From the IMG/VR virus record IMGVR_UViG_3300037419_001224: DNA of 64,000 nucleotides. One strand, written 5' to 3'. This document shows, piece by piece, positions 47,838 through 64,000 of this stretch (the first letter of the stretch is position 1; every line of letters begins with the position of its first letter). The position numbers and the translations under genes are program-made. This stretch comes from a virus. A model generated the notes under the pieces. The model did not search any database. It saw only the letters and a list, made by a program, of their open reading frames with translations, and was not told where the DNA came from.

Positions 47838-47884
47838 AATTCCGTAGCGCTTGATTTCGCGCAAGCAGAATCTGAGGCACAGAG

Positions 47885-48815: not shown

Positions 48816-48825
48816 GGGGCCGGTG

Positions 48826-49870: not shown

Positions 49871-50508
49871 CGCGGCTGTTCGAGGTCGTCAACGTCGAAC
49901 AAGGATCAGAGGAATGGTTTCAGGTCCGGGCTGGCCGGGTGACCGGTGGCGAAGCTGCCGCCGTCATGGCAGGCAAGGACACGGCAACGAGAAAGGATTA
50001 CCGGCTGAAGCTGGCGGTCGAGCGGATGACCGGCAAGCCGGAGATTGACGACTACAGCAACCGGTATATGCGGCATGGGCAGGAAACGGAGCCCATGGCC
50101 AGACTGGCTGTCGAGATGAGGATGAAGGTGCTGGTACGGGAAACCGGGTTCCTGCGGCATACGAGCTTGCTGATCGGCGCGTCTCTCGATGGAGATATCG
50201 ATGATTTCGCAAAGACAATTGAAATTAAATGTCCGAAGCCTACGACGCATGTGGATTACCTGCAAGCGGGCAGGTTGCCTGCAGTCTATCGGTGGCAAGT
50301 GGTCCATGGGCTCCTGGTCAGTGGTGCGCAGAGCTGCATTTTCGCGTCGTACTGCCCTGGCCTTCCTGACGGCTTACAGCTCTTCTGCATCGAGGTCCAC
50401 GCGAAAGATCTCCCGCTCGAAGAGTATGAGACTGCGCTGAAGGCGTTTCTCAAGGAAGTCGATGACACGCATGAACAACTGCTGCGTCTGAGGAAGAAGC
50501 ATGAGTAA
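49867..50508 (+). CDS. YqaJ-type viral recombinase exonuclease
   Basis: QGSEEWFQVRAGRVTG ... SLDG ... EIKCP, a PD-(D/E)xK layout. Confidence 0.7.
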   Translation: MTRLFEVVNVEQGSEEWFQVRAGRVTGGEAAAVMAGKDTATRKDYRLKLAVERMTGKPEIDDYSNRYMRHGQETEPMARLAVEMRMKVLVRETGFLRHTSLLIGASLDGDIDDFAKTIEIKCPKPTTHVDYLQAGRLPAVYRWQVVHGLLVSGAQSCIFASYCPGLPDGLQLFCIEVHAKDLPLEEYETALKAFLKEVDDTHEQLLRLRKKHE

Positions 50509-50683
50509 GGTGGAAAAGGCAAGTGAACTGGAATGGCTGCGATGGTTCTACGAGCACGCGGAACTCAACGTGGGCAAAGGGCTGACACGCGAGGACGAGG
50601 TCCACATTCTGAAGGAAGTTTTCTGCGACCAGACTGGTAAAGCGCTGCCGGATGGATATCGAATTGATGACGAGGTGATCTAG
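50501..50683 (+). CDS. Hypothetical protein
   Basis: 60-aa ORF. Confidence 0.45.
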   Translation: MSKVEKASELEWLRWFYEHAELNVGKGLTREDEVHILKEVFCDQTGKALPDGYRIDDEVI

Positions 50684-50820
50684 TGATTGATGCAAACGTA
50701 GTCGGGATGCATATGGTCTTCGCCGGAATCATTCTTGGAATAGCGGGGTCTGCCTCCGACGTTCTTTTTGCCATCGGCATAGCAGCGATAACCGTTGGTT
50801 TTGCGCTCATTACTTTCTGA
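50683..50820 (+). CDS. 45-aa membrane peptide
   Basis: GTG start overlapping the upstream stop. Two hydrophobic segments. Confidence 0.3.
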   Translation: MIDANVVGMHMVFAGIILGIAGSASDVLFAIGIAAITVGFALITF

Positions 50821-50837
50821 TTGTCATAGGTGAATAA

Positions 50838-51290
50838 ATGGCTGGAGTAAATAAAGCAATCATCGTCGGGAATGTCGGGAAAGACCCGGAGATTCGGAAC
50901 GCGAAAGACAGTATCGTCGCCAGCTTCTCCGTCGCGACGAGCGAGAAGTACAAGGGCGAGGAGCGTACCGAGTGGCATCGGATGGTCGCGTTCGGCAAGG
51001 TGGCCGAGATCGTCGAGCAGTACGTCACCAAGGGCACCCAGGTTTACATCGAGGGCAAGATCCAGACGCGCAAGTGGGAAGACAACGACGGCATCGAGCG
51101 CTACACCACCGAGATCGTGGTGAACAGCCTGCAACTGCTTGGTCGCCGCGACAGCAACGAACGCAGCGAGGGACGCGGCCAGGCGCAGCCCAGCCAGAAC
51201 AGCAATCGTCGGCGCGATGACCGCAGCAGCCAAGAGCGTCGCCCCGCGCCAAGATTCGATGACATGGACGACGACAGCATTCCATTCTGA
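50838..51290 (+). CDS. ssb: Single-stranded DNA-binding protein
   Basis: OB-fold N-terminus ([14 protein letters not shown]...TEWHR), Gly/Gln/Arg linker and acidic tail DDDSIPF. Confidence 0.9.
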
Positions 51291-51299
51291 GGTGATGCC

Positions 51300-51632
51300 A
51301 TGGCCACTGAACGAGATGGTGAATTGTTGAAGCAGGAAGGGATCGCCAGGACGATCGAGAAGGAGCGCGAGGAATGGATCGCTCTGTATCACAGGGAGTT
51401 CTCCTTCTTCCTTCAGGAACAAGGAGACAGGCCGTTCCTCTGCGGTGACTTCCATGAATGGTTCCATGCGCGGGGCAACCCAGCCTCGCACCATCCGAAC
51501 ATGTGGGGCGCACTGTGGCATGGCCTCGCAACGAGCGGCGTGATTCGGCAGACCGGCGTTTATCGAAAGGCCACGAGAGCACTGTCCCACGCCCGCGTGT
51601 GCGCGGAGTGGGTGCGCAATGGTCGCGATTAA
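51300..51632 (+). CDS. Hypothetical protein
   Basis: 110-aa ORF. Confidence 0.5.
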   Translation: MATERDGELLKQEGIARTIEKEREEWIALYHREFSFFLQEQGDRPFLCGDFHEWFHARGNPASHHPNMWGALWHGLATSGVIRQTGVYRKATRALSHARVCAEWVRNGRD

Positions 51633-51656
51633 AACATTAACGGACGGGAGGTTCTC

Positions 51657-51935
51657 ATGGAACTTGGCAAATCGCTTGATGTGCCGGAGTGTCAGTGCCC
51701 GAGCTGCGGCAAGCAACTCAACAGGGTGACTGGCGTCGATGCCAGCGAAGCGCCGAAGCCGGAAGACATCACGATCTGCGCTGGCTGCGCTGCGGTGCTG
51801 AAGTTCGATGACCAGATGAAGGTGGTCGCGTTGTCTCAGGAAGAGATGCTCGCGCTGCCGACCGTTATGAAAGCGGAGATACGGTTTGCGCAGAGTGTGG
51901 TCAGGGACATGCACGCAGGGAAGAGGCTGAACTGA
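51657..51935 (+). CDS. Zinc-ribbon protein
   Basis: CQCPSCG...CAGC. Confidence 0.5.
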   Translation: MELGKSLDVPECQCPSCGKQLNRVTGVDASEAPKPEDITICAGCAAVLKFDDQMKVVALSQEEMLALPTVMKAEIRFAQSVVRDMHAGKRLN

Positions 51936-52058
51936 ATGATCACGCTTGAGTATTGGCTGTTCTTGGCATGGTCGTTGGCATGCTTTGCGTTTGGCGGATT
52001 CTTCTCGCTCTGCATGCTGAAGAGGTGGATCGTGAAGAGGATTCGCAGATTCGGATGA
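51936..52058 (+). CDS. 40-aa single-TM peptide
   Basis: Hand-translated MITLEYWLFLAWSLACFAFGGFFSLCMLKRWIVKRIRRFG. Confidence 0.35.
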   Translation: MITLEYWLFLAWSLACFAFGGFFSLCMLKRWIVKRIRRFG

Positions 52059-52062
52059 GGTC

Positions 52063-52863
52063 GTGGGTCACATCATGGGTGGCAGGAAGTGTCCGTGTTG
52101 CATGGGGCCGCTGTGGTTCGACCAGGCGAAGGGCTATCCGCACTGCTTGATTTGCGAGAGGGAGTTCCCGGAAGACTGGAATCAATACATCACTGATCGT
52201 GCGAAAGACGATTTTGCAGACAGCCGGAGAGACGGCACTTTGACAACCTATGGAGAAAAGGCAATGAGTGATACATCAATTCTGACCGAGTATGACTTTA
52301 TCGCAATGGTGGACGCGTCCGGCTCGATGGGCTCGGAAGACGCACCGAACGGGCGCTCCCGCTGGGCGTACATGCAGGAGACCGCAGAAGCGTTCTGCCG
52401 CGATATCCAGAAGCTGGATAGCGACGGCATCGGGCTGGTCGTGTTCGGTGGCTCGCAGATCGACTCGTATGACGGCGTGACTGTCGACAAGGTGGGCGAG
52501 GTTTTCCGCTCGCGTTCGCCGCGTGGTTCGACTCCTTTGGCCGAAGCGCTGACCTCTGCGTTGAAGCTGGCCGGCAAGTCGAACAAGAAGGACTTCATCA
52601 TCTGCTTCACTGATGGCGTGCCGGACGATCAGGATGCCGTGGCGCGTGTGATCCGCGAAGCGTCGAACAAGCAGGATAGCGATGATGCATTGACGATCCT
52701 GTTCGTTCAGGTTGGCCGTGACCAGGCCGCGACCGCGTACCTGAAGAAGCTCGACGACAACATCAGCGGATGCCGGTTCGACATTGTGGACGCGAAGACG
52801 ATCGACGAGGCGGAGAAGTTTGCCACCACGACCGATCTGATCCTGGCCGCGATCAACGACTAG
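52063..52863 (+). CDS. vWA-domain protein (TerY-like) with N-terminal zinc ribbon
   Basis: CPCC...CLIC ribbon. Then the MIDAS motif DASGSM, plus ...GSTPLAEAL... and FTDGVPDD. An internal alternative start (MSDTSIL, 52264) would give a stand-alone vWA protein. Confidence 0.75.
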   Translation: MGHIMGGRKCPCCMGPLWFDQAKGYPHCLICEREFPEDWNQYITDRAKDDFADSRRDGTLTTYGEKAMSDTSILTEYDFIAMVDASGSMGSEDAPNGRSRWAYMQETAEAFCRDIQKLDSDGIGLVVFGGSQIDSYDGVTVDKVGEVFRSRSPRGSTPLAEALTSALKLAGKSNKKDFIICFTDGVPDDQDAVARVIREASNKQDSDDALTILFVQVGRDQAATAYLKKLDDNISGCRFDIVDAKTIDEAEKFATTTDLILAAIND

Positions 52864-52871
52864 CAGGTTAT

Positions 52872-52986
52872 GCCGACGTAGCTCAGCCAGGTAGAGCACA
52901 GGGCGCTGACCGCTGCTTGCAAGGATCGCCACCTTGGGCAAGTCACATTGGCCTTGAGGCCGCAGGTTCGATTCCTGCCGTCGGTT
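52872..52986 (+). ncRNA. tRNA-like RNA gene carrying about 40 extra nt between the D arm and T arm (115 nt)
   Basis: Acceptor GCCGACG/CGTCGGT, D arm GCTC-AGCCAGGTA-GAGC and T arm GCAGG-TTCGATT-CCTGC are canonical. The middle 63 nt cannot form one standard anticodon arm plus a short variable loop. Confidence 0.55.
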
Positions 52987-52997
52987 CATTTACGGAG

Positions 52998-53219
52998 ATG
53001 CAGATGAATATCAAAGGTTACTTGCTGAGCCGTGCTGACAGCACGAGCGCATGGATCGGTTTCGTTGGGTTCGTGCTTGAGATCCTGCTCCACATGGGGA
53101 ACGTGTCCACGATCATGCTGGTGCTATTCGCGGCGCTGATCGTGCTGCCGGAGACGAAAGTCAGGGAAGTGTTTGCCGACTGGACGAAGAAGATCAAGGA
53201 CTCGGATTTCGTGGGGTGA
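52998..53219 (+). CDS. Membrane protein
   Basis: 73 aa, with GGAG upstream and two TM segments. Confidence 0.45.
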   Translation: MQMNIKGYLLSRADSTSAWIGFVGFVLEILLHMGNVSTIMLVLFAALIVLPETKVREVFADWTKKIKDSDFVG

Positions 53220-53413
53220 TCATGCAGAAGAAGAAAGCTAATTGGTTCGACTACGTGCTGCTCGTTGGAGTTTGTTGCTCGGGCATCTTCAATCTTTACC
53301 TGGCGATTGATGACTTTGACAAGGGTGCGTACCTGTGGATGGTGATCAATGGCGCGTGCTCTTTGTGGATGGCACACCTTGCGGTCATGTTGGAAGAAAG
53401 GATGGAGCGATGA
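53216..53413 (+). CDS. Membrane protein
   Basis: 65 aa with two TM segments. Confidence 0.45.
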   Translation: MIMQKKKANWFDYVLLVGVCCSGIFNLYLAIDDFDKGAYLWMVINGACSLWMAHLAVMLEERMER

Positions 53414-53637
53414 GTGTGAAGGCTAATGTGGAGTCGACGGAGAAGAAAATCGTGTCGTATCCGAAGCTCCGTAAATCAAACCTGTATGGAACGATAGTCC
53501 TGTTTGTCGCGCCGCGCATGGGCACTGTTGTTTCCGCTGGAGGTGGTGGGAACCCGATTGGCTATCACTCCGATAGTTGGTCTTTAGAATCATTCGAAGA
53601 CTTCGATGGCACGGTAACGCTGCAGAACGAGAAATGA
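53410..53637 (+). CDS. Hypothetical protein
   Basis: Start MSVKANV, ATGA overlap. Confidence 0.45.
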   Translation: MSVKANVESTEKKIVSYPKLRKSNLYGTIVLFVAPRMGTVVSAGGGGNPIGYHSDSWSLESFEDFDGTVTLQNEK

Positions 53638-54071
53638 AGACGTTCGTCATCCGCAATGCCGATATCCGCGACCGTGTCATCGCGTTCGTGCAAAGCCTGC
53701 CGCTCGAATGCGACTGGAAGGTGCGGGTCGAGGAGCACGTCGAGCCGAAGACGCGTGACCAGGAAAAGAAGTACCACGCAATGCTCCAGGATATCTCGCC
53801 CTACTTCTCGTTCATGGGCCGCACGGACTGGAGCTTCGACGATATCAAGCGGCTGCTGATCGATGCATTTGCACGAGCGCGACAGGCGGAGGGCAAGCCA
53901 CTGCATCAAGGTGGCCGCACGGTGCCGAGCCTGGATGGAACGGGTGTTGTCGCACTAGGCGCGCAGTCGCGTCACTTCACGGATGAAGAGGCGTCGGATT
54001 TCATCGAGTACCTGTATGCGTTCGGATCGGAAGCCGGCGTGCAATGGAAGGAGGAGCCGGATGGATCATGA
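53634..54071 (+). CDS. ninB: NinB/Orf-like recombination mediator
   Basis: ...KTRDQEKKYHAMLQDIS...WSFDDIKRLL resembles the NinB signature (RS..QN...HA.L.DI...W...WK). Confidence 0.5.
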   Translation: MKTFVIRNADIRDRVIAFVQSLPLECDWKVRVEEHVEPKTRDQEKKYHAMLQDISPYFSFMGRTDWSFDDIKRLLIDAFARARQAEGKPLHQGGRTVPSLDGTGVVALGAQSRHFTDEEASDFIEYLYAFGSEAGVQWKEEPDGS

Positions 54072-54312
54072 CAATTACTGGAGCATGTACCTGCATCACC
54101 TGGCGATGTTCGGCCAGGAGCAGAGAGAACGAGCAGGACAGGGGAATAGCTTGGCGGCGGCTCATGAACGCTGTCTCGGGCTGGTATGCCCTCGCGGAAG
54201 TAGCGATTTCGCCCCCTGCCCTACTCGGTTTCCCGATGCAGTCAGCGCTTTATCGGTGGCCGCTGACTGTGGAGCACCAAGTTCTCACTGGCTCTCCTTG
54301 GCGGGGCAATAG
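54061..54312 (+). CDS. Doubtful ORF in a hairpin-rich segment
   Basis: Codon bias is acceptable only in the first half. Another frame (track ORF 54044..54370) is also open. Confidence 0.2.
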   Translation: MDHDNYWSMYLHHLAMFGQEQRERAGQGNSLAAAHERCLGLVCPRGSSDFAPCPTRFPDAVSALSVAADCGAPSSHWLSLAGQ

Positions 54313-54360
54313 AGCCGGACCTGTGTCTCCGCTCCTGCTGCTACGGGCAGGAGTTTCATG

Positions 54361-54390
54361 GGCGGGGTAGTCCGACCCGCCCATCTTTTC
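54361..54390 (+). terminator. Terminator-like hairpin inside the early-right operon
   Basis: GGCGGG-GTAGTCCGA-CCCGCC followed by CATCTTTTCC. Confidence 0.4.
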
Positions 54391-54401
54391 CTGGAGTGGG
54401 C

Positions 54402-54683
54402 ATGAAGTTTGAAATTGCGGGCAGGATCAAAGGAATGAATCTGCAGGAGGCTTTGGATGAGGGCTTGATGGAACAGTCTGGCGGTGAGACGTATCTGCTG
54501 TACGACTCGATCTGTCTTGAACCCCCTCGTTATCAGCCTCACCCCGATCCTCATGACCTGAACAAGTGGACAGTGACGTTCAAGAAAGACGGGAAAGTGG
54601 TGGCGACATGGCCACGCCTGCTGCTGGCGGGAGAAACACTCTACATCCTTGGCTTGGAAGGCAGGGCGAAGGTGAATCTATGA
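54402..54683 (+). CDS. Hypothetical protein
   Basis: ATG with GGAG 7 nt upstream. Confidence 0.5.
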   Translation: MKFEIAGRIKGMNLQEALDEGLMEQSGGETYLLYDSICLEPPRYQPHPDPHDLNKWTVTFKKDGKVVATWPRLLLAGETLYILGLEGRAKVNL

Positions 54684-54844
54684 GCGTATTCGAGCAGGAT
54701 GAAGAAGTCGAGTTGCGCCTGTCGTGGCCGAAGATATGCAGACTGGCTTGCATGGCGATGATCTACGGCGTGACGTTCGACGAGATATGCGCGATAGCGC
54801 TGCGGGATTATATGGCGCGAGGGGATAGGAATGAGCGGTCCTGA
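54680..54844 (+). CDS. 54-aa hypothetical protein
   Basis: Start MSVFEQ, ATGA overlap. Confidence 0.4.
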   Translation: MSVFEQDEEVELRLSWPKICRLACMAMIYGVTFDEICAIALRDYMARGDRNERS

Positions 54845-55061
54845 TTTTAATAAACCGATTAATGTCGATCTGGACGGCATACATTGGGCGAAGATCTACT
54901 TCGTCTGGAGCCAAGAGACGGTTGGATTCGGCGAGTGCAGCATCTCCAAATTGGAAAACGGTGAACTAGTGGCGGATACGGAAGGCATGGGCAAGGAATG
55001 GGTGCGCCGTGCGCTGTATGCGGTTGTTGATACGTTGGTCGAGAACATGAAGGTGCTGTGA
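54831..55061 (+). CDS. Hypothetical protein
   Basis: 76-aa ORF. Confidence 0.45.
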   Translation: MSGPDFNKPINVDLDGIHWAKIYFVWSQETVGFGECSISKLENGELVADTEGMGKEWVRRALYAVVDTLVENMKVL

Positions 55062-55078
55062 TACGCGAGGAGAGAGAA

Positions 55079-55333
55079 ATGAGTCACGGGCCGATTGAAG
55101 AAAAGCATTACGAGACGATGCGGGCTGTCGCGGATGCGTTGAACGAGTTCTTTGCTGGTTACGGGTTCGTCCTTCTCGTATTCGAGATGACGAACCCCGG
55201 CGAGATGCCGAAAGAGGACGCGAGGATGAATTACGTCTCAAACTCCAGAAGAGACGATGTGCTGGCCGCGATGAAGGAGTTCATCGCCAACGCCGAGGGG
55301 CGCGTTGTGGATGCGCCGAGGAGCAAGCAGTGA
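55079..55333 (+). CDS. Hypothetical protein
   Basis: ATG with a strong SD (GAGGAGAGAGAA). Confidence 0.5.
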   Translation: MSHGPIEEKHYETMRAVADALNEFFAGYGFVLLVFEMTNPGEMPKEDARMNYVSNSRRDDVLAAMKEFIANAEGRVVDAPRSKQ

Positions 55334-55788
55334 ATGACGATCAACGCGGATTCGCTGCCATCGGCCTTTACCGACCAAAGGACACGAACAACATGGGCTG
55401 CGTGATGCGTGCTGCCGGTTGCTACGGCGCAGCCATGGTTGCGATCCAGGGTCCGCGCTTCGGCAACTCGAAGACCGATACGCAGAAGGCATGGAAGCAT
55501 ATCCCGACGATCCAGACTGATGAACTGCTCGGGGTTATCCCGTTCGGTGCGGTGCCGGTTGCCATCGAGATACTGCCATTCGCGAGGCCACTGACAGGGT
55601 ACGTCCATCCAGAGCGTGCTTTCTATATCTTCGGGCCGGAGGACGGATCGATATCGCTCGACATTGTTAGCCGCTGCCGCGATGTCGTATATGTGCCGAC
55701 CAACTACTGCATGAATCTGGCGGCGACGGTGAACGTGGTCCTGTATGACCGGATGCTGAAGCGTACAGCACAAAGGAGAGTGGCATGA
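55330..55788 (+). CDS. SpoU/TrmH-family (SPOUT) RNA 2'-O-methyltransferase
   Basis: Three SPOUT motifs: NMGCVMRAAGCYG, YIFGPEDGSI and VPTNYCMNLAATVNVVLYD. Confidence 0.7.
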   Translation: MNDDQRGFAAIGLYRPKDTNNMGCVMRAAGCYGAAMVAIQGPRFGNSKTDTQKAWKHIPTIQTDELLGVIPFGAVPVAIEILPFARPLTGYVHPERAFYIFGPEDGSISLDIVSRCRDVVYVPTNYCMNLAATVNVVLYDRMLKRTAQRRVA

Positions 55789-56318
55789 CCGAAACAACAA
55801 ACGACCAGTTGAAGCCGTGCCCTTTTTGCGGAGCGCCGGCTGATGATTTTAACCCTGATGGCGAAATGGAAGGCTACAGCATCAGATGCAGCGGAAGGAT
55901 GGCGATATTCAACGCAGATGAATCCTGCTGCCCAATGCATACATTCAGCTATAAAAATGAGCAAGATGCCCGCGATGCATGGAACCGACGCGCCAGCCCT
56001 GCCAGCGCCGCGCCGCTGGAGCCAATGGTGCGCTTTTGCCCTGCATGCGGAAGCATTGGCGACATCTACTATTCCAAGCATAGGGATTGCTGCCCTGATG
56101 GTAGCGAGGCAAGGCGGATACCAGTCAGTCTTGCCAATAAATGCCGCGAACTATTCATGGCGACATTGGCTAATGTCGCGCCAATTGACCCATCCAACGA
56201 GTTAATCGATGCGGTCGCAAACCTGATCAAGGTGAAGGGCCGGTTCCACACTGAACAGGCATATCAGCGTGTTGCGGATGCCTACGACAGATTGATGAGG
56301 AAATCACAGGTGGAATGA
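55785..56318 (+). CDS. Lar-family restriction-alleviation-like protein with C-terminal extension
   Basis: LKPCPFCGAPAD ... ARDAWNRR, then a second CPAC ribbon. Confidence 0.55.
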   Translation: MTETTNDQLKPCPFCGAPADDFNPDGEMEGYSIRCSGRMAIFNADESCCPMHTFSYKNEQDARDAWNRRASPASAAPLEPMVRFCPACGSIGDIYYSKHRDCCPDGSEARRIPVSLANKCRELFMATLANVAPIDPSNELIDAVANLIKVKGRFHTEQAYQRVADAYDRLMRKSQVE

Positions 56319-56596
56319 TGGCAACGAAGCTTGAGAAGTGCGCAAACATGTTGAATGAGGCTTTCAGGACAAAGCTGCCTGCGGCGTTCCATGCCAAGTT
56401 CGGTGCAGAACTGGAAACCAGCTTCAACCTGTTTTCCATGTCGCTTGTAAGCCGCCGCGTAGATGGTGCGGACTTCACACCAGAGCAGTACGCATGGGTG
56501 GAAGCCTACTCTGATGGATTTGGCGACGCGTTGGAGTTGGTGCGCACCGAAGCGAATAAGCACTATTTCGCCAAAGAAGCTAATGGAGAAAGTTAA
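56315..56596 (+). CDS. Hypothetical protein
   Basis: 93-aa ORF. Confidence 0.5.
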   Translation: MMATKLEKCANMLNEAFRTKLPAAFHAKFGAELETSFNLFSMSLVSRRVDGADFTPEQYAWVEAYSDGFGDALELVRTEANKHYFAKEANGES

Positions 56597-56889
56597 TGAG
56601 CACCAAAATGGACGCAAGGGTAAAGAAGATAAATCCTGATAGCACGGTCCTCAGCCAGATGGACGAACAGTGGCAGAAGATCGTCATGCTGCTCCTGTGG
56701 AAGCTCAATCGCGGCGAGCCGGTCAAGATCACCAGTCAAGACATCCTCGCCTTCTCTTCGGCGTTCGCGCCTAACCTCCCTGTTCTTTTCATGCACGGGA
56801 TGGCGGATGGATTCGAGCTGTCGATCGTGACGGAAGATGCCGCGAAAAGGATCGCGGAGCATGACAAGCAGATGAGAGGATCGGCATGA
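56596..56889 (+). CDS. Hypothetical protein
   Basis: 97-aa ORF. Confidence 0.5.
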   Translation: MSTKMDARVKKINPDSTVLSQMDEQWQKIVMLLLWKLNRGEPVKITSQDILAFSSAFAPNLPVLFMHGMADGFELSIVTEDAAKRIAEHDKQMRGSA

Positions 56890-57179
56890 AAGCACTCAAA
56901 AGCATTGTCGGATGGCCTGCTGCATGGCTGCTGTACTACCTCGGCGATCTCGTATCGAAGCCGTTGAATGCCTGGGACTGGGCCGCGTTCCTCTATCCGG
57001 CTTATAACCGGCTGATGCTCGCTTCTAGCAGCGTCCAGGACTGGAGCGGGTGCAAAGGACCGTGGAGACCGGCAACGATGGATACGGTGTATGACGACGG
57101 CAGCGACCATAAATGCTGCCATGTATGCGGCTACTGCAAGGATTGCGGTGATTGCGACAGATATGGGTGCGGGTGGTGA
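56886..57179 (+). CDS. Hypothetical Cys-rich protein
   Basis: 97 aa. C-terminal CCHVCGYCKDCGDCDRYGCGW. Confidence 0.5.
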   Translation: MKALKSIVGWPAAWLLYYLGDLVSKPLNAWDWAAFLYPAYNRLMLASSSVQDWSGCKGPWRPATMDTVYDDGSDHKCCHVCGYCKDCGDCDRYGCGW

Positions 57180-57499
57180 GTCCTGACGTCATCTATCGAT
57201 ACCTGAAATTCCGCAGCCGACGCGGCTACGTGCGCGGATCGACCGTCTGTCGACATCTGCGGCTGCCGTTCCAACTGCTGCGTGGTTTTGATGATCTGCT
57301 TGGACTCGGCAGTATCGGGCCGGCTGGTGACAAGTTTCCGAAGGCGCGGCATCGCTGGCTGCGCTACGCAAGGCGCAACTTCTACATGGCTGACTTCCGC
57401 TACTTCTTCAAATGGAATGGCCGGATCTACTGCTACTCGCAGCGCACTCTGCGCAAGGGAAAGTTTACTCCGCGCAAGAAAGGACTGCATCATGATTGA
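57176..57499 (+). CDS. Basic hypothetical protein
   Basis: GTG start overlapping the upstream stop. The ORF track uses TTG at 57152. Confidence 0.35.
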   Translation: MSPDVIYRYLKFRSRRGYVRGSTVCRHLRLPFQLLRGFDDLLGLGSIGPAGDKFPKARHRWLRYARRNFYMADFRYFFKWNGRIYCYSQRTLRKGKFTPRKKGLHHD

Positions 57500-57689
57500 G
57501 AAGGTGATGTCGGGTATTGTGACTCGGCATATCAGGACTGGTGGGATTTACTACGTGTTTCATCTCGGCCGGATGAAGATCGGTGATGAGTGGAAGGACG
57601 CGGTGATTTATCGCAGCATCGACGACCCCAGTAAGCCGATGTTCGTTCGTGAGATGGATAAATTCAAACGCTTCTTCGAGGAAGTGTGA
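57492..57689 (+). CDS. DUF1653-like protein
   Basis: GGIYYVFHLG...AVIYRS...MFVRE resembles the DUF1653 pattern. Confidence 0.5.
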   Translation: MIEKVMSGIVTRHIRTGGIYYVFHLGRMKIGDEWKDAVIYRSIDDPSKPMFVREMDKFKRFFEEV

Positions 57690-57690
57690 T

Positions 57691-57981
57691 GTGAAAGCGA
57701 TCCTCAAGAAAGATGAGCTGGCAGAAGAGCTGCAATGCAGTGAAAGACATATTGAACGATTGATGAAGGAAGGTTTACCATTCATTCCGTTCGGTCGTCG
57801 TCACAAGCGCTATGACCTGGACTCCGTTATCAACTGGCTCAAGTCGAGGGAATCATGCCTACCAGAAAGGACGCCGAAGGGCGTTGGCACATCGAGATTT
57901 GCTCCGAAGGTCAACGCATACATCGAATTCTGCCGAAAGGTACAGGGAAGAGGGAAGCCGAGGCAAAGGAGCACGAGCTGA
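57691..57981 (+). CDS. AlpA/Xis-like HTH protein (excisionase candidate)
   Basis: GTG start. LAEELQCSERHIERLMKEGLPFIPFG....YDLDSVINWL. The frame stays open 127 nt into int. Confidence 0.45.
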   Translation: MKAILKKDELAEELQCSERHIERLMKEGLPFIPFGRRHKRYDLDSVINWLKSRESCLPERTPKGVGTSRFAPKVNAYIEFCRKVQGRGKPRQRSTS

Positions 57982-58802
57982 AGCAATCGTTGGAATCGCG
58001 CAGGTACACGCACGATCCGGCACTCATCGATGTCATGAACCTGTATGTTGAGCACGCAGACTCGCTGCGCAGCGCCTCGACAGCGAAATACCACGCAGCA
58101 CGTATCGTTCCCTACATCGAAGGGAAACGCGCCTCAGATGCCAAGGATTGCGCAGACACGATCACAAGCAAGCTGCGCGCAAAAGGCTATGCGATCGCCA
58201 CGATCAACCGCAGCCTGGGCACACTGAAGAAAGCGCTCGGCCTGGCGTTCGACAAGCATCTCACCGAGATCAACTACGGCATGTATCTGCGCCGCATGCC
58301 CGAGCATAACGAGCGCGACGTGTTCCTCTCGATCGATGAAGTGAAGAAGATCTGCGACTGCGCGAGCGAGAACGTGCGGGCCGCGATGTGGATCGCACTG
58401 TTGACCGGCATGCGGCGCGGCGAAGTCCTCAAGATCAAGAAGGAAGACATCAAGGGCGACATCATCATTATTCCCGCCGGCAATACCAAGGCGTTCAAGA
58501 AGCGTGTGGTGCCGATCACGAAAGCCGTTATCCCCTGGCTGGAGTACGTGCCGTTCTCGATCAACTTCGAAGGGTTGAAGACGGGGTTCAGGCGGGCAAG
58601 AGAAAAGGCCGGTATGCCGCACGTCCACTTCCATGACCTGCGCCATTCCTGCGCATCACTGTTGATCGAGAGCGACGTGCCGATCGAGGTCGTGTCCAAG
58701 ATCATGGGGCACTCGTCGATCAAGATGACGGAACGCTACGTGCATATCCGTGCGGAACGCCAGCGCGAGGCGCTCGAAAAGACGTTCGGCAAGCTCGGCT
58801 AG
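57855..58802 (+). CDS. int: Tyrosine integrase
   Basis: 315 aa. ...LLTGMRRGE..., HFHDLRHSCAS and GHSSIKMTERYVH (R-H-R-Y catalytic set). Confidence 0.9.
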   Translation: MPTRKDAEGRWHIEICSEGQRIHRILPKGTGKREAEAKEHELKQSLESRRYTHDPALIDVMNLYVEHADSLRSASTAKYHAARIVPYIEGKRASDAKDCADTITSKLRAKGYAIATINRSLGTLKKALGLAFDKHLTEINYGMYLRRMPEHNERDVFLSIDEVKKICDCASENVRAAMWIALLTGMRRGEVLKIKKEDIKGDIIIIPAGNTKAFKKRVVPITKAVIPWLEYVPFSINFEGLKTGFRRAREKAGMPHVHFHDLRHSCASLLIESDVPIEVVSKIMGHSSIKMTERYVHIRAERQREALEKTFGKLG

Positions 58803-58984
58803 TCTTTCTTTTCGTCGTCGTCCAGGTTCTCTCGTTCCATGCGATCGTAATCGCGCAACGCATCCGCGAGTTGCTTGAACGCTTCAGGTGTGACTTCGGG
58901 CATGGATTGGGCAAGCAGAGAGCGTCGTGGGCCACGACGATAGCGCTTCTTGGGCCGACTTGCATCGTGTACAAGTTTGAGCAT
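58799..58984 (-). CDS. Possible small acidic-tailed protein between int and the tRNA
   Basis: 61 aa from MLKLVHDA. The longer track ORF 58799..59026 runs into the tRNA and was trimmed. Confidence 0.25.
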   Translation of the reverse strand: MLKLVHDASRPKKRYRRGPRRSLLAQSMPEVTPEAFKQLADALRDYDRMERENLDDDEKKD

Positions 58985-58989
58985 ATTCG

Positions 58990-59064
58990 TGGTGGGCGGT
59001 ACTGGGATCGAACCAGTGACTTCCACCGTGTGAAGGTGGCACTCTACCGCTGAGTTAACCGCCC
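58990..59064 (-). tRNA. tRNA-Val(CAC): tRNA-Val, anticodon CAC, CCA encoded
   Basis: GGGCGGT-TA-ACTC-AGCGGTA-GAGT-G-CCACC-TTCACAC-GGTGG-AAGTC-ACTGG-TTCGATC-CCAGT-ACCGCCC-A-CCA. A fully canonical 75-nt cloverleaf. Confidence 0.9.
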
Positions 59065-59258
59065 GGTGTAAAAGATTTACACAGGAATTACACTGGACGG
59101 TCGTAAGCTATTGATTCATAAGGGATAGCTCTTGCCGTGTGAAGGCAAAGAGTTCCCCTTTCTAATAGGCTATTGCCCGTAAAATCAACGAGTTACAGCG
59201 ACAGTAACCGACTCGAATCAGCTATTTCTTCATCGTTTTACACTGGATTTACACAGGA
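59065..59258. promoter_or_regulatory. attP: attP-like recombination site (arm repeats, IHF-consensus sites, palindromic core)
   Basis: Four direct 11-bp repeats TTTACAC(A/T)GGA at 59076, 59087, 59237 and 59248, plus an inverted partial copy at 59065. WATCAANNNNTTR matches at 59104-59116 (minus) and 59183-59195 (plus). Core hairpin TTGCC-GTGTGAA-GGCAA at 59132-59148. Confidence 0.6.
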
Positions 59259-59413
59259 ACGGGTCCGCATCCGCGCCCTTTCCTCCCCCTGCTTCGCGCC
59301 ATATTAATGCAAATTACATGCAGGGCTTTACTATCGAATCCATGTAAAGCTTTAAAAAATTCAATCAGAAAATTGCTTGCTCTCTGAAGTCTGCGGCATT
59401 AAAGTACCTCCAT

Positions 59414-59432
59414 ATTCAAGCAGTGCTTGAAT
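59414..59432. promoter_or_regulatory. Perfect 19-bp palindrome ATTCAAGCA-G-TGCTTGAAT (operator candidate)
   Basis: Perfect 9-1-9 inverted repeat 28 nt upstream of the ATG at 59460. Shares 13 identical nt with the site at 37421-37433. Confidence 0.55.
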
Positions 59433-59459
59433 TAATCAAGTAATACATGGAGACTTCAG

Positions 59460-60431
59460 ATGCCGACTCACTCCCGCAAGCGCGTCCGCTGGCAGCCAGC
59501 CGACTACGATGCGATGGCCCCAGTCCTAATCGCGCTTAACCCAGCCTTACCAAAGTCAGAGACGCTGATCAGCCTGAAAGGCTCCGATGTCAAGTACGCC
59601 ATGCGTGCGTTGCCATCGGAACGGCGCAGGCCAGATCTCTGGTCCCACCATATGCCGAAGGTTCGGCAGGGATTCAAGGACGCGTTCGCCAGGATGGCTG
59701 CCAAAGCCGAGCCTAAACCAGAACCCCAGGTCGATGATTATCGCCCACAAGTTGATCCTGCGAAACAGGAAAATGCACAGGCCACGACCGAGACGCGCCC
59801 TGCCCCCGAGAAACTGCAGGAGCTGGTCAACAAGTTCTCGAAGGAAGGAAAGCCAGCCAGCAATGGGCATGTAGGCGCTGTCCTGGCGGATGCGCCAGTG
59901 CGGCCACCGGTCAGGCAAGTCCAGACTAAACCGGTCCAGGCACCTACTTCCCTCGACGCCATGGTGGACTCGTTCGCCGCTTCCCTTGCGGAACGGTTCG
60001 CGGTCAGTTTCAGCCAGTCGCTGGCGCACCATCTTCGCGAGCAGCTTGCCCGTGAGCTGCCGACGGTTGCACGAACCGTGATGGCCGCGCCCGCTGTTGC
60101 CGCGCAGCCTGAACCAGCGGAGCACAAGGAACCAGCAAAACCAAAGCCGTTGCATATCGCGGTCGTCGGCGCGTTGCCGCAGCAGGCCCGCGATATCGAG
60201 CAGGCGTTCCCGGAACTGAAGATCACTTGCATATCGAAGGACGTCTCGTCACAGCAGGCGGTTGCGACAGCCGTCAATGCCGACAAGACGATCCTGATGA
60301 CGGACTTCGTTGGCCACCCCATCCATGCAGCCCTTAAAAACAAGATCGGCGAAAAGCTGGTCCGGTGCTCTGGCTCGGTGTCGGCGGTCAAGCATCAGAT
60401 CCACGTACTGAAGTGCGCCACCAACCACTAG
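59460..60431 (+). CDS. Hypothetical protein with DUF2325-like C-terminal domain
   Basis: 323 aa. Pro/Ala/Gln-rich middle region. The C-terminus LHIAVVGALPQQ...ADKTILMTDFVGH resembles DUF2325. Confidence 0.5.
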   Translation: MPTHSRKRVRWQPADYDAMAPVLIALNPALPKSETLISLKGSDVKYAMRALPSERRRPDLWSHHMPKVRQGFKDAFARMAAKAEPKPEPQVDDYRPQVDPAKQENAQATTETRPAPEKLQELVNKFSKEGKPASNGHVGAVLADAPVRPPVRQVQTKPVQAPTSLDAMVDSFAASLAERFAVSFSQSLAHHLREQLARELPTVARTVMAAPAVAAQPEPAEHKEPAKPKPLHIAVVGALPQQARDIEQAFPELKITCISKDVSSQQAVATAVNADKTILMTDFVGHPIHAALKNKIGEKLVRCSGSVSAVKHQIHVLKCATNH

Positions 60432-60440
60432 GAGAGAGCA

Positions 60441-60779
60441 ATGGCAGCAACAAAGCAGGAGTTCTTTTATGAGCTCGTCAATTTGATCAACCGGACTGGC
60501 GCGAATTACCTCGACGCCACCGAAGCGTTCGGAATGGTCGTTTCCGCATCCGCCAAGTGCGCGGCAGAAGTACAGAGCAAGCCGATAGCAGAAGTCAGGG
60601 ATGAGCTCGCGGAAGCGTTCGCGAAAGGCTATACGAACGACAAAGTGAAGGCTCAGGTCGTTGAAGGCGCTCCTGTCGCCGATCCGAAGACCGGTGAATG
60701 GACGTTTCCCGACAAGCAGGGACAGGAAGAACAAAAGGTCAAGGCCGCTGCTGCTTGGCCGTTCCCGACAAAACAATAG
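60441..60779 (+). CDS. Hypothetical protein
   Basis: 112-aa ORF. Confidence 0.5.
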   Translation: MAATKQEFFYELVNLINRTGANYLDATEAFGMVVSASAKCAAEVQSKPIAEVRDELAEAFAKGYTNDKVKAQVVEGAPVADPKTGEWTFPDKQGQEEQKVKAAAAWPFPTKQ

Positions 60780-60788
60780 GAGGCAGTC

Positions 60789-61232
60789 ATGAATATCTTC
60801 CCACCGGAATTCGTAGCGGCACAAAAGGAGTTTCTCGACGAAGCCAGAAGAGAAATGGAAAAGGTCGAGGAGATCGGCGGCAAGACAGCGATGCACATCT
60901 GCGTCGGGTTCCTGAGATTGTGCTCGACATGGAGCCAGGCTGCGCTCGTCTCGACGACGGCGTTCGCCATATTGGGTGACGAAGAAGATCCGATGAGTGC
61001 CGCTGCGAGTGAAGCGGCTGCCAAGGCGATCAGTATGTTAGGCGATGACTATTTCCAATACGCCGCCGCCACGCTCGGCTTCGTGTTGAAGGAAGGCTTG
61101 CACGACGACGACAAGGCAAAGCGCTGCTACGAGATCGTTTGGGCGCTGATCGTCAAGGAAGAGACGATGCTGAAGAGCCTCATGCTCAGCATGATCGAGA
61201 AGCGCTGCGCAGAGAAAACAGGAACGCACTGA
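60789..61232 (+). CDS. Hypothetical protein
   Basis: 147-aa ORF. Confidence 0.5.
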   Translation: MNIFPPEFVAAQKEFLDEARREMEKVEEIGGKTAMHICVGFLRLCSTWSQAALVSTTAFAILGDEEDPMSAAASEAAAKAISMLGDDYFQYAAATLGFVLKEGLHDDDKAKRCYEIVWALIVKEETMLKSLMLSMIEKRCAEKTGTH

Positions 61233-61687
61233 TGGCCATGACCGTCAATTCCGCCCGTCGCATTTGCGAGGAACTGTACAAGGCGTCCAGGGGCGAGATC
61301 GAGCTGACACGCGAGGTCGCGTTCCATGGCGCTCATGCGCTCCAGGCGATGCTGAAGGTGGTATTGACGAGGCCGGTCGGTGGATATCGGCTGGTGCCGG
61401 AAGAGCTGTATTGGCAAATGCAAACCGTGTATTTGCAGCACATCGCTGTCCAGATCGTGCTGCCCAAGGAGAAACAGGATGGAAAAGGAACTGACCAACG
61501 AATTGGATCAAGAGATCGAGAGCCTGGCGCGCTCGGCTGTGATGAAGGAAATGAAGGATCTGCTTCAGTCGGAAGTGGGCCGGATGGCCCCAGTGTCGGG
61601 CAAGCTGCTCGCGATGACGATCAAGGAAACGCCCGACTGGAAAAGCGGGATGGTGGCTCTGGCTCTGGCACTGAGAGCGGTGGTTGA
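61232..61687 (+). CDS. Hypothetical protein with uncertain 3' end
   Basis: Start MAMTVNS (TGATG overlap). The last roughly 70 codons overlap the next gene and have A-rich third positions. Confidence 0.35.
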   Translation: MAMTVNSARRICEELYKASRGEIELTREVAFHGAHALQAMLKVVLTRPVGGYRLVPEELYWQMQTVYLQHIAVQIVLPKEKQDGKGTDQRIGSRDREPGALGCDEGNEGSASVGSGPDGPSVGQAARDDDQGNARLEKRDGGSGSGTESGG

Positions 61688-61835
61688 ACTCGGCATCGAC
61701 CTGAACGTGGGGTCGAGAGAGACCGTCACGACCGGCGTGCTCAGGATCTTCGAGCACTTGCTGGAAGCGGACTGTGGCGTGTTCTCGATGAGCAAGGAAG
61801 AGTACCAGCAGTTCACGGAAGGGAAGAGGCACTGA
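61479..61835 (+). CDS. Hypothetical protein
   Basis: Start MEKELTN with a strong SD (AAGGAGAAACAGG). Confidence 0.5.
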   Translation: MEKELTNELDQEIESLARSAVMKEMKDLLQSEVGRMAPVSGKLLAMTIKETPDWKSGMVALALALRAVVELGIDLNVGSRETVTTGVLRIFEHLLEADCGVFSMSKEEYQQFTEGKRH

Positions 61836-61836
61836 T

Positions 61837-62079
61837 ATGACCGACTACAACGCGGCAGGCGCGGAAGTGATTAATCTTCTGGCCGGCAAATACGAGATGG
61901 ACTTCATGCAAATCTCGCTGCTGTTCGGCGCTCTCATGCGCAGTTTCATTACCTCACGCCCGCCAGAAATGAGTGAGGAGTTCGTCGAAGACCTTGTGAG
62001 AAGAACACTCGCGAAAGGGTTTGAGTCTGAAGCCGAGCTTGCCATTAAAGCCAAGGAGGAAGGAAATGACAACGCCTAA
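61837..62079 (+). CDS. Hypothetical protein
   Basis: 80-aa ORF. Confidence 0.5.
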   Translation: MTDYNAAGAEVINLLAGKYEMDFMQISLLFGALMRSFITSRPPEMSEEFVEDLVRRTLAKGFESEAELAIKAKEEGNDNA

Positions 62080-62473
62080 CTATCAGCTTCTCCGGGAAGC
62101 GTACTACTTCATCAAGTCGATCCCGGACGACGCGTTCAAGCTGGATCACTGGATCGGTGAAGGGACGCCCGAGTGCAAGACGCTCGCCTGTGCCGGTGGA
62201 TGGCTTCCGAGTTGCCCCACGTTCAGGGAACTCGGCCTGCGCAATAGCCACTATTACGGTGCTCCTTCTATCCCGCATGAAGACGGCAAGCTGCTCCTTG
62301 GGTATCCAGCGCTTGCTGAGTTGTTCGGCATTCCCTATCGCGATGTGAACGCACTGTTCGGTGCTCGCGATGTTGAGTACGCGTATGACCCGGAAGAAGT
62401 CGAGGAATTGAGCGACAAGGAGCTGTGGCTCGCGAGGATGCGCAATTACCTGAGAGAGAAGGAGCAGTGGTAA
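62066..62473 (+). CDS. Paralogue A of a tandem small-protein family
   Basis: MTTPNYQLLREAYYFI...CKTLACAGGW...LSDKELWLARMRNYL, with SD AAGGAGGAAGG. Confidence 0.55.
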   Translation: MTTPNYQLLREAYYFIKSIPDDAFKLDHWIGEGTPECKTLACAGGWLPSCPTFRELGLRNSHYYGAPSIPHEDGKLLLGYPALAELFGIPYRDVNALFGARDVEYAYDPEEVEELSDKELWLARMRNYLREKEQW

Positions 62474-62874
62474 TGAAACCGAACTACGAACTGTTGAAGG
62501 ATGCGTACGCGATCATCGACGGTATCCCGGACAAAGTGTTCCATCTCGCCGCGTGGGTCACGAGAAAGGGGAAAGCGCTTGATTGTGGAACGGTCGCATG
62601 TGCCGGCGGTTGGCTCTCGATGCACCCGCAATTTAACGACATGGGATTGAAGCTCAATGCAGAAAGATTCCCTGTTCTTCGTGGGCTGCAGGCCATCGGT
62701 GCCCTCGCTGCTTTATTCAATCTCGAATACTCGGACGCGCTAGACCTTTTCGGAATGCGCCCGATCTGCGGTGGACCTCGCAGATACGACCCCCCGAATG
62801 CTGATCGCCTGTCGGACAAGGAGCTGTGGAAAGCGCGGGTTCGCAATTTCCTGAACCGGATGGGTGCGCTATGA
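62473..62874 (+). CDS. Paralogue B of the same family
   Basis: MKPNYELLKDAYAII...CGTVACAGGW...LSDKELWKARVRNFL. Confidence 0.55.
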   Translation: MKPNYELLKDAYAIIDGIPDKVFHLAAWVTRKGKALDCGTVACAGGWLSMHPQFNDMGLKLNAERFPVLRGLQAIGALAALFNLEYSDALDLFGMRPICGGPRRYDPPNADRLSDKELWKARVRNFLNRMGAL

Positions 62875-62941
62875 GAATCGTGCTGGTGGCGTTCGCGCTG
62901 ATCGCATTCCTTGCCGCCAGCTCGATTGAAAGGAGAAAGAC

Positions 62942-63169
62942 ATGTCATGCCCAAGATGCGGAAGCCATGACCTGTGGGACGACAACCTGTGGTGGGGCTG
63001 CAATAGCTGCGGGTACGCAGGAAGCCCGGACGGCGGAACGATGTTCTTCGCAAAGGATATCGAGGGACTGCCAAGGACCGTCGACGAAGTGAACAAGAAG
63101 GCCGGATGGACATGGCTCAACTACCAGCCAATGATCGTCCCGAACCGTAACGATGATGACGAGGCGTAA
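62942..63169 (+). CDS. Zinc-ribbon protein
   Basis: MSCPRCGSHD...CNSCGY, with SD AAAGGAGAAAG. Confidence 0.5.
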   Translation: MSCPRCGSHDLWDDNLWWGCNSCGYAGSPDGGTMFFAKDIEGLPRTVDEVNKKAGWTWLNYQPMIVPNRNDDDEA

Positions 63170-63199
63170 GCCCGTTTTACTGAAGAGAAGGAGAGCAAG

Positions 63200-63625
63200 G
63201 TGACAAATTTCGATTTACTCAAGGAAGCGTATCTGATCGTCGATCAGCAGCGGAGTCTCAAACTGTCCGAGTGGCGGCACTGTGCCGCCGGCAAGCTGGC
63301 GAATCATCCGTCTTTCAGCGCGAAGACGGGTCTTCGGCTCAACGGGTGGACGCCGACCCTGGACAAGGATGGCCGCACGTATGACGAATACTCCGCGCTG
63401 GCACAGGTGTTCGATATCCCATGGGAAGAGGCGTTTGATCTGTTCTGCTCCCGTGAGCACGGGTCACCCTATGACCCTCCGGTGAAAATGAGTCGCCTTG
63501 GGAAGGTGGTGCCGCCGACATGCAAAGCGTTGTGGAAGGCGCGGATGCGCAATTTCTTCAAAGTACACGGGATACCTCTTGTCCAGGACAGGAAGCCCGC
63601 GCAACAGCAGGCGGCAGTCGCCTGA
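63200..63625 (+). CDS. Paralogue C of the same family (diverged)
   Basis: GTG start. MTNFDLLKEAYLIV...KALWKARMRNFF. Confidence 0.5.
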   Translation: MTNFDLLKEAYLIVDQQRSLKLSEWRHCAAGKLANHPSFSAKTGLRLNGWTPTLDKDGRTYDEYSALAQVFDIPWEEAFDLFCSREHGSPYDPPVKMSRLGKVVPPTCKALWKARMRNFFKVHGIPLVQDRKPAQQQAAVA

Positions 63626-63654
63626 TTAATCAACCGAAGCAAAGGAGAAGATAG

Positions 63655-64000
63655 ATGGCAATGACTATGAATATGGAAAAGATGCTGAGGGCCGCGCAGG
63701 AGCAGAAGAAGCAAGGCACGACCCTCGGCGATGCTGGCCCGGTTGCGCATGTCGCCGAGATCCGGTACCACGATGGTCCGCTGCTGCTGCCGAACGGCAT
63801 GTCTGAACAGCAGGCGGTCGAGCTGCTGGTGCGGCGTAGCGAATACCTGAATGAAGACGTGAACTTCGTCGAGGTGTTCGATGCGTTCCCGTGGGATGGC
63901 GCGCACGCGATCGACGTGGTACTGGAGCGCAAGTTCGGCTGGTCCGCCGCGACCATGATCGAGAAGCCTGGTCTGTTCGGCAACATCAAGGTCAAGCCGA
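63655..64000 (+). CDS. Hypothetical protein, 5' part only (runs off the window)
   Basis: Hand-translated MAMTMNMEKMLRAAQEQKKQGTTLGD...FGNIKVKP with AAGGAGAAG upstream. Absent from the ORF track because it has no in-window stop. Confidence 0.55.
   Translation, partial: MAMTMNMEKMLRAAQEQKKQGTTLGDAGPVAHVAEIRYHDGPLLLPNGMSEQQAVELLVRRSEYLNEDVNFVEVFDAFPWDGAHAIDVVLERKFGWSAATMIEKPGLFGNIKVKP

Follow-up and report, generated by a model that had tools for sequence, protein, structure and literature searches.

The 64,000-nt stretch of viral DNA analysed here (IMG/VR record IMGVR_UViG_3300037419_001224; hereafter the window) carries a complete tRNA-Val(CAC) gene between a tyrosine integrase gene (int) and a segment of paired repeats, and the question that this locus raises is whether the tRNA marks the end of an integrated prophage, forms part of a classical attachment site, or is a replacement that the phage brings along for a host gene it destroys. 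The answer that we favour, with a probability of about 0.8, is that positions 59065-59258 are the intact phage attachment site (attP) of a temperate phage using tRNA-dependent lysogeny, a strategy named and proven genetically by Guerrero-Bustamante and Hatfull (mBio 2024, PMC10865867). The case for this attP rests on homology in five respects, namely the integrase, the arm sites, their geometry, the core and the tRNA. The parts of the locus are as follows.

57855-58802, plus strand: tyrosine integrase of 315 amino acids (PF00589, E 1.9e-27; phrog_1, E 1.3e-55)
58990-59064, minus strand: complete tRNA-Val(CAC) (ARAGORN; Rfam RF00005, 66.5 bits against a gathering threshold of 29)
59065-59075: inverted partial arm site, P' arm; its reverse complement reads TCTTTTACACC
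59076-59086, plus strand: arm-type site TTTACACAGGA, P' arm
59087-59097, plus strand: arm-type site ATTACACTGGA, P' arm
59104-59116, minus strand: match to the consensus of integration host factor (IHF), AATCAATAGCTTA, between the P' arm and the core
59129-59152, plus strand: attP core, made of CTCTTGCC (59129-59136), GTGTGAA (59137-59143) and GGCAAAGAG (59144-59152)
59183-59195, plus strand: IHF-consensus match AATCAACGAGTTA, lying in the interval from the core to the P arm
59237, plus strand: arm-type site TTTACACTGGA, first of the P arm (59237-59258)
59248, plus strand: arm-type site TTTACACAGGA, second of the P arm

The tRNA gene, the only one that ARAGORN finds in the window, encodes its own CCA, has A as discriminator base and CCACC/GGTGG as anticodon stem. 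It lies 187 bp past the integrase stop, on the minus strand, in agreement with the initial annotation of this DNA (about 190 bp), which had also read the adjoining segment as a lambda-type attP. That reading stands: every relative has an anticodon-loop core bordered by arm sites, and the geometry is the same throughout. The motif TTACACWGG occurs four times in the 64 kb, always within the attP segment, against 0.18 occurrences expected, and none of 100 shuffled sequences reached four. All of the 11-bp repeats listed earlier (59076, 59087, 59237, 59248 and an inverted copy) are present, except that the second begins with A and not with T. A scan for the IHF consensus WATCAANNNNTTR returned three matches in the window against 0.47 expected, two of them being the facing pair already reported in the attP segment. 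The core with its GTGTGAA spacer is found at the coordinates first given for it, but its palindrome is imperfect, with arms of 8 and 9 nt and one additional T.

The 11-mer CCGTGTGAAGG is common to the core (59135) and the tRNA (59026), and is the sole tRNA stretch of at least 11 nt that recurs in the window. By a rough estimate, such a lone match has a chance of about 2% of occurring by itself, and the real support for the core lies in its conservation as a block in at least 12 related phages rather than in this 11-mer. In classical integration of tyrosine integrases at the anticodon loop, as Williams reportedly described in 2002, attP carries that part of the tRNA which extends from its anticodon loop to its 3' terminus. 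Here the core has only TGCCGTGTGAAGGCA (15 nt) in common with Burkholderiales tRNA-Val, and no T-arm or acceptor sequence stands beside it: to its left lies CGGTCGTAAGCTATTGATTCATAAGGGATAG, in contrast to the classical relative L022, where the tRNA 3' portion is contiguous with the core. The complete tRNA is kept apart from the core by the P' arm.

The state of the DNA could be settled from a second source. An exact-protein look-up with the integrase led to a metagenome contig of 68,674 bp from the Joint Genome Institute (JGI), which is identical to window positions 47855-64000 at 100% and in which window positions 1-255 recur 4,547 bp beyond. The window and this contig are circular permutations of one genome of 68,547 bp, a period that the contig exceeds by 127 bp. 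The genome encodes a major head protein, a portal/adaptor protein and the large terminase subunit (TerL), early genes for ERF, YqaJ, SSB and NinB, and, to the right of the attachment site, an AAA protein and a polyvalent protein of 2,351 amino acids (DUF7178, LPD38). Its lysogeny switch consists of two divergent genes.

46437-46658: Cro-like gene, forming a CI/Cro switch with 46899-47414
46899-47414: CI-like repressor gene, divergent from the Cro-like gene

The source is a podovirus-like phage of temperate lifestyle, probably infecting a Burkholderia-like bacterium, and was captured unintegrated. Because the map is circular, the attP is unrecombined and has phage DNA to its left and right, as the initial annotation had proposed, and the region from 59.3 to 64 kb continues in the same circular phage instead of being conserved chromosomal DNA.

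This circularity bears directly on the textbook explanation of the locus, by which the tRNA at 58990-59064 would itself be the attachment core or a host gene at a prophage end, integration would restore it, and the palindrome and repeats would be incidental. An integrase beside a tRNA 3' end is how a prophage end usually looks, and three chromosomal contigs of Burkholderiales (L006-L008) look exactly so. However, both flanks here lie within one circular phage genome, no host DNA follows the tRNA, and neither a far-end direct repeat of the tRNA or of its 3' end nor a second copy of any tRNA segment was found in the window (at most 3 mismatches over 50 nt, or exact 11-mers, that of the core excepted). 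Moreover, the arm sites lie on one side only of the tRNA and on both sides of the palindromic core, and in an integrated relative (L078, below) phage and host DNA switch at the second GTGTGAA while the phage tRNA is wholly phage-type. We consider this explanation highly improbable.

How related phages arrange the same parts supports the attP reading further. The closest integrase among 5.8 billion proteins searched is 62% identical to that of the window, and the integrases of the relatives, 48-62% identical, all adjoin tRNA-Val(CAC) sequences. Two layouts can be told apart, which we defined on integrases 48-54% identical to the window's. In layout A, seen in the viral contigs L022-L028, the integrase stop is followed by two arm sites (GATTTACACCnGG), a hairpin and the reverse complement of the tRNA-Val 3' half; the tRNA identity extends through GTGTGAA, then gives way to unrelated DNA and to 2-3 further arm sites. 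L006-L008 represent the integrated state of this layout with the host tRNA rebuilt, since they show int, two TTACACC arm sites and a complete tRNA-Val(CAC), with a flank that is conserved between genera. As the identity between attP and tRNA ends exactly at the loop in these classical relatives, exchange takes place at the anticodon loop. A search with the integrase in species-representative genomes gave classical lysogens as the nearest matches (49-54% identical) and no close lysogen.

Layout B, to which the window belongs, starts with int, which is followed by a complete tRNA-Val(CAC), a pair of arm sites and, after some 36 nt, the block GCCGTGTGAAGGC; some 90 nt further on come two more arm sites. 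It recurs in at least 12 other phages (L019, L020/21, L029, L039, L040, L043, L048, L050, L057, L058 and L060/68/77), and in those parsed for geometry the spacing from the tRNA 3' end is narrow: the P' sites start between +87 and +102, the loop between +147 and +150 and the P sites between +239 and +263. When eight sequences are aligned, no variation is seen in the arm hexamers or in the 13-nt core block, whereas nearly all between them varies. Phage genes, including those for lysozyme, tail and recombination proteins, flank the site on both sides in the two lineages whose neighbouring genes were inspected (L029-L032 and L033-L037). In a neighbour-joining tree of the integrases, calculated without support values, layout-B sites fall into at least three clades and are intermixed with classical ones, a hint that the layout may have switched repeatedly within this integrase family.

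The comparison also speaks to the idea that the repeats and the palindrome are operators or iterons serving the divergent tRNA and the rightward operon (59460 onward) of a phage that may no longer integrate. The segment is intergenic and lies upstream of the rightward gene cluster, and direct repeats are common in operators and origins. Yet in classical relatives the TTACAC repeats flank the tRNA 3' half, integrated relatives retain only the int-proximal repeats by the tRNA, as would be the case for arm sites split by recombination, and the genes to the right of the site are entirely different among the relatives while the site itself is conserved. We attach very little credence to this idea.

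The intervals next to the core hold one further recurrent element. In many classical and layout-B attP sites the motif AA(A/C)CCGCAT(G/A)(A/G)AT occurs beside the core, namely in the interval between P' arm and core in L020 and L029, and in that between core and P arm in L020, L047, L049, L063 and L070. It is a possible site for an accessory factor (excisionase, Xis, or a host factor), and the window has its IHF-consensus matches about where the relatives carry this motif.

Direct evidence for the splitting of a host tRNA comes from a relative caught in the integrated state. A pattern specific for the int-side junction (attR) with the arm motif TTACACWGG gave no matches in viral and metagenome contigs; this motif was too narrow, and the junction pattern with the arm relaxed to TTACAC found the IMG/VR contig IMGVR_UViG_3300048838_001836 (L078), which contains the following.

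6119-7063 of L078: integrase gene, its product 48% identical to the window's
7071-7145 of L078: complete tRNA-Val(CAC), identical to the window's at 73 of 75 positions

Both differences between the two tRNAs fall on paired positions of the acceptor stem, where a G-C pair is replaced by A-T. Past the tRNA, L078 has two arm sites and then, beginning with the left half of the core, ...GTGACCCTGCC GTGTGAA GGCAGTGCTCTACCACTGAGCTAACTGCCC, the last part being the 5' half only of a host tRNA-Val, to its first base; 95 nt after this half lies host gltX (Glu/Gln-tRNA synthetase catalytic domain PF00749, E 1e-106). ARAGORN detects no second tRNA in L078, and the remnant scores 25.6 bits with Rfam, below the threshold of 29, with a 53-nt insert in place of the T arm and a mispaired acceptor. 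The phage tRNA lies 65 nt downstream of the host 5' half in the same orientation, and the P-arm pair of sites is absent, as expected at an attR junction. L078 is the int-side junction of a prophage that cut its host's tRNA-Val apart at the anticodon loop without rebuilding it. The initial annotation had foreseen such a split without rebuilding for a host tRNA-Val(CAC), and this related lysogen joins its host at the very site predicted, rather than at another.

L078 contains in addition a second tyrosine recombinase (PF00589 and Phage_int_SAM_4; 4936-5958, plus strand) just upstream of the prophage integrase. The opposite junction type (attL) is less informative: a metagenome scan for it yielded many junctions of host terminator, tRNA 3' half, loop and phage arm (for example L045 and L074), and such junctions arise from both layouts and hence cannot discriminate between them. 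L045 (Ga0208243_1000037, 177,555 bp) shows, at 3221-4311, a third arrangement with int at the junction of the 3'-half remnant: a host-like flank with a terminator, the tRNA-Val 3' half, GTGTGAA, about 85 nt, three arm sites and, on the opposite strand and directed towards the site, an integrase homologue (53% identical).

Which tRNA the core imitates could also be decided. It was originally described as a copy of the anticodon stem-loop of the adjacent phage tRNA; the 11-nt identity behind this description exists, but the core stems TGCC/GGCA match host-type tRNA-Val instead. In every layout-B phage the core stems (T)GCC...GGC(A) equal the host-type CTGCC...GGCAG of L006 and L007, and the anticodon stems of the phage tRNA differ from the core, being CCACC/GGTGG, CCGC/GCGG (with the loop GTGTGAG), CTTCC/GGAAG, CCTGC/GCAGG, CTACC/GGTAG or CAGCA/TGCTG. 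The 11-nt identity is thus a by-product, because core and phage tRNA are both Val(CAC) anticodon loops. This steady divergence of the stems might keep the phage tRNA from becoming a substrate of its own integrase. For the phage of the window, an attachment site in the bacterium (attB) within a host tRNA-Val(CAC) is strongly implied by the core match, by L006-L008 and by L078.

Two small open reading frames (ORFs) beside int and the tRNA complete the picture of the locus before integration.

57691-57981 (ends uncertain), plus strand: Xis/AlpA-like HTH_17 ORF, a candidate excisionase (Pfam HTH_17, E 3.7e-5; phrog_66, excisionase/regulator, E 7.8e-6)
58799-58984, minus strand: ORF of 61 amino acids (ORF61), called as a gene in the JGI contig, with no Pfam match

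The first begins just upstream of int and overlaps it. ORF61 fills the gap between int and the tRNA, directly downstream of the tRNA and on its strand; it does not occur in the relatives L019, L020, L029 and L078, in which the integrase stop abuts the tRNA.

By analogy with relatives whose integrases are 48-59% identical to its own, the phage of the window would integrate in the same way. Its integrase would bind the TTACAC-type sites of both arms together with the inverted TGCC/GGCA sites of the core, probably assisted by host bending proteins, for which the predicted IHF sites make IHF a candidate. The predicted strand exchange lies within the 7-bp GTGTGAA (59137-59143), and its partner would be a host tRNA-Val(CAC) gene with the stem nTGCC/GGCAn, cleaved in the anticodon loop. 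Because attP and host tRNA would overlap by only about 15 bp (TGCC GTGTGAA GGCA), without the T arm or the acceptor 3' strand, integration should leave two dead halves, the host 5' half at the int-side junction and the 3' half at the other. The first junction would read int, ORF61, phage tRNA, P' arm, ...CTCTTGCC GTGTGAA and host 5' half, and the second host 3' half, GTGTGAA GGCAAAGAG..., P arm and gene 59460; the hybrid sequences expected at these junctions are ...GGGATAGCTCTTGCC GTGTGAA GGCAGTGCTCTACC... and ...GACCCCTGCC GTGTGAA GGCAAAGAGTTCCCC.... The phage tRNA would then follow the truncated host 5' half at a distance of about 70 nt, downstream of it and co-oriented with it, where it could be expressed from the host tRNA promoter and supply the lost function, which a lysogen would presumably need. 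ORF61 would come to lie downstream of both the host tRNA promoter and the phage tRNA.

Several points weigh against this account. A lysogen of this exact phage was not found: the contigs that carry the window's own genes, and the exact-protein look-ups with genes on both sides of attP, show the free configuration only, and near matches to the region 57.8-60.5 kb in phage and plasmid collections were limited to the Ralstonia phage RS-PI-1, through its tRNA, with none among the plasmids. Sites matching the strict IHF consensus are not conserved in most relatives; they are present only in the window, in L043 and in L050, whose match corresponds to that at 59104-59116, and the window match at 59183-59195 aligns with TATCAAAGGGTTA in L043 and with a near match, CTTCAATGGGTTA, in L019. 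A promoter scan of 58700-59500 detected no sigma-70-like promoter for the phage tRNA, and a simple scan upstream of the host tRNA remnant in L078 found none either; TTGACC-N18-TTTAAT, read by eye at the latter place, fails the scan criteria. Finally, tRNA-Val(CAC) may be non-essential where a tRNA-Val(UAC) with cmo5U34 also reads GUG, and the phage tRNA could be merely beneficial instead of required.

Four Logan contigs that break inside the tRNA, L002 and L005 (end at 59018), L004 (end at 59047) and L080 (start at 59028), were considered as lysogen junctions and rejected, as they are identical to the window up to their last base. The breaks most likely arose from k-mers in common with near-identical tRNA-Val genes that belong to other phages, or to hosts, present in these samples, and are evidence neither way.

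A possible dispensability of tRNA-Val(CAC) also underlies the one alternative that we regard as live, although unlikely. It accepts the attP and holds that the tRNA does not compensate for anything: it would serve lytic translation or counter a defence that targets tRNAs, and the host would tolerate the loss of its tRNA-Val(CAC). A tRNA that is 93.8% identical occurs in RS-PI-1 next to a recombinase only 25% identical to the window's integrase, which hints at a mobile cassette that is useful in itself. However, the isotype and anticodon of the tRNA always match the attB target, and no other tRNA accompanies it in the window. It is present in every relative whose attP is without the 3' half and absent where attP keeps that half, and its orientation is always that of the target, its place always the side on which the missing 3' half would lie. 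Roles in translation and anti-defence have been proposed for phage tRNAs in general (PMC10865867), but the same correlation proved causal in mycobacteriophages (PMC10865867). The strict link to the loss of the 3' half argues for compensation.

Compensation of this kind has precedents. The initial annotation knew of no description of such an arrangement, yet it is already on record as tRNA-dependent lysogeny. Fionnbharth and other phages have cores of 8-17 bp within tRNA-Lys, tRNA-Ile2 and tRNA-Leu genes that are not rebuilt upon integration, and they bring along a cognate tRNA on which lysogeny depends; where closely related integrases act on cores of 43-49 bp, the tRNA gene is rebuilt (PMC10865867). 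The cases comprise Fionnbharth (K4), cluster L, Cain (K6) and the Gordonia phages of CQ2/DL, and the authors predicted, citing prophage Lj965, that others would occur outside Actinobacteria (PMC10865867). Later papers have described phage-related sequences that substitute for a tRNA in Sinorhizobium meliloti.

The window resembles these actinobacteriophages in having a tyrosine integrase with arm-type sites round a short core (8-17 bp there, about 15 bp here) that matches part of a host tRNA gene, which is not reconstructed there and would not be here, and in the division of close integrases between long and short cores at one attB (Boilgate and Fionnbharth there, L022-L028 and the window type here). 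It differs from them in its probable host group (Betaproteobacteria, Burkholderiales), in its predicted target, tRNA-Val(CAC), and in being known from sequence alone. Moreover, the Fionnbharth tRNA lies elsewhere, overlapping gene 37 and with a demonstrated promoter of its own, whereas the window tRNA is fixed in cis between int and the P' arm. Of the five features that define tRNA-dependent lysogeny, the window has a tyrosine integrase with an arm-bearing attP, a short core that would not rebuild the tRNA and an encoded cognate tRNA; an attB overlapping a host tRNA gene is strongly implied by its relatives, and the fifth feature is the need of the phage tRNA for viable and stable lysogens, which shows as clear plaques when the tRNA is deleted. 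Gaia (cluster X; Omega, of cluster J, is its comparison) comes close in another way, as its 8-bp core lies in tRNA-Leu(CAA), the gene is not rebuilt and the cognate tRNA is encoded downstream of the integrase and so adjacent to it, like that of the window (PMC10865867), but its integrase family and target are different, and the published text is without an orientation or spacing to set beside the geometry of +147 to +150.

With its own classical relatives (L022-L028 and L006-L008), the window has in common the integrase family (48-54% identity), the arm motif, the loop GTGTGAA and symmetric stems that serve as core-type sites; it is set apart by an attP without T arm and acceptor, and by a whole tRNA gene between int and the P' arm. 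The attP of lambda is likewise about 200 bp long, with arm sites on both sides, inverted core-type sites round a 7-bp overlap and IHF-consensus matches in both arms. Here, unlike in lambda, the arm sites form tandem pairs at a spacing of 11-12 bp, attB would lie inside a tRNA gene and the predicted IHF sites are not conserved among relatives.

A further comparison is offered by RS-PI-1 (KY464836, L038), an isolated, T7-like Ralstonia phage of the Autographiviridae. In record positions 1-3733, reverse-complemented, the following can be read.

2502-2576, minus strand: complete tRNA-Val(CAC), unannotated in the record
2674-2706: core with a second GTGTGAA
about 2470-2495 and about 2780-2815: repeats

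As in the window, a complete tRNA-Val(CAC) is followed, about 100 nt off, by a second GTGTGAA core flanked by paired repeats, and a tyrosine recombinase is adjacent. This recombinase, however, points away from the tRNA, the arm repeats read CTGTCCCG, and the core, which in the window is symmetric, includes some 22 nt from the D-arm side of the host 5' half. A single literature search aimed at this phage and its integrase returned no paper. We propose RS-PI-1 as a candidate for tRNA-dependent lysogeny in a cultivable system, and its topology would offer an experimental model.

It is tempting to go one step further. Int, tRNA and attP may form a fixed cis-replacement cassette that places a spare tRNA behind the truncated host 5' half, at a distance of about 70-100 nt, where capture of the host promoter would express it, with the stem kept divergent and the whole design having arisen or spread repeatedly. 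This is a tentative idea, which we hold as possible without thinking it probable, and the promoter capture within it is speculation. If true, the lysogen would have a lysogen-specific tRNA gene behind a host tRNA promoter. Recurrence of this topology, in several integrase clades and with the unrelated recombinase of RS-PI-1, would then point to repeated origin or spread in Burkholderiales phages.

If our reading of the attP is right, tRNA-dependent lysogeny, proven in phages of Actinobacteria and suggested for a few alphaproteobacterial prophages, would extend to Burkholderiales phages and to tRNA-Val(CAC), in a phage family that is widespread in metagenomes. A single integrase family provides a natural series of classical attP, short-core attP and integrated junction. 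There are also practical consequences. For annotation, a tRNA beside int would here be neither the host gene at a prophage end nor an accessory for codon usage, and attB could not be found through long identity between attP and host. For engineering, the tRNA would have to be part of any integration vector made from an int-attP module of this kind.

The remainder of the phage genome offers some minor observations. The G+C content falls from about 63% in 1-31 kb, which holds the structural genes, to about 56% in 31-64 kb, with the early and accessory genes. The polyvalent protein is encoded on the minus strand from window position 1 to about 4715 and runs past the window (L001, 18352-20948). 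Two arrays of diverged 63-nt (21-codon) direct repeats, with 9-10 copies at 60-80% identity, lie at 20494-21109 and 22753-23086 in the structural-gene region, on the minus-strand coding side, and are probably part of a repetitive protein of the tail fibre or surface. Right of attP, a 40-nt segment occurs three times (62414-62453, 62815-62854 and 63521-63560; 70-83% identical), each time at the start of one of several consecutive small ORFs, which have no Pfam or PHROG match and look like a small paralogous gene family.

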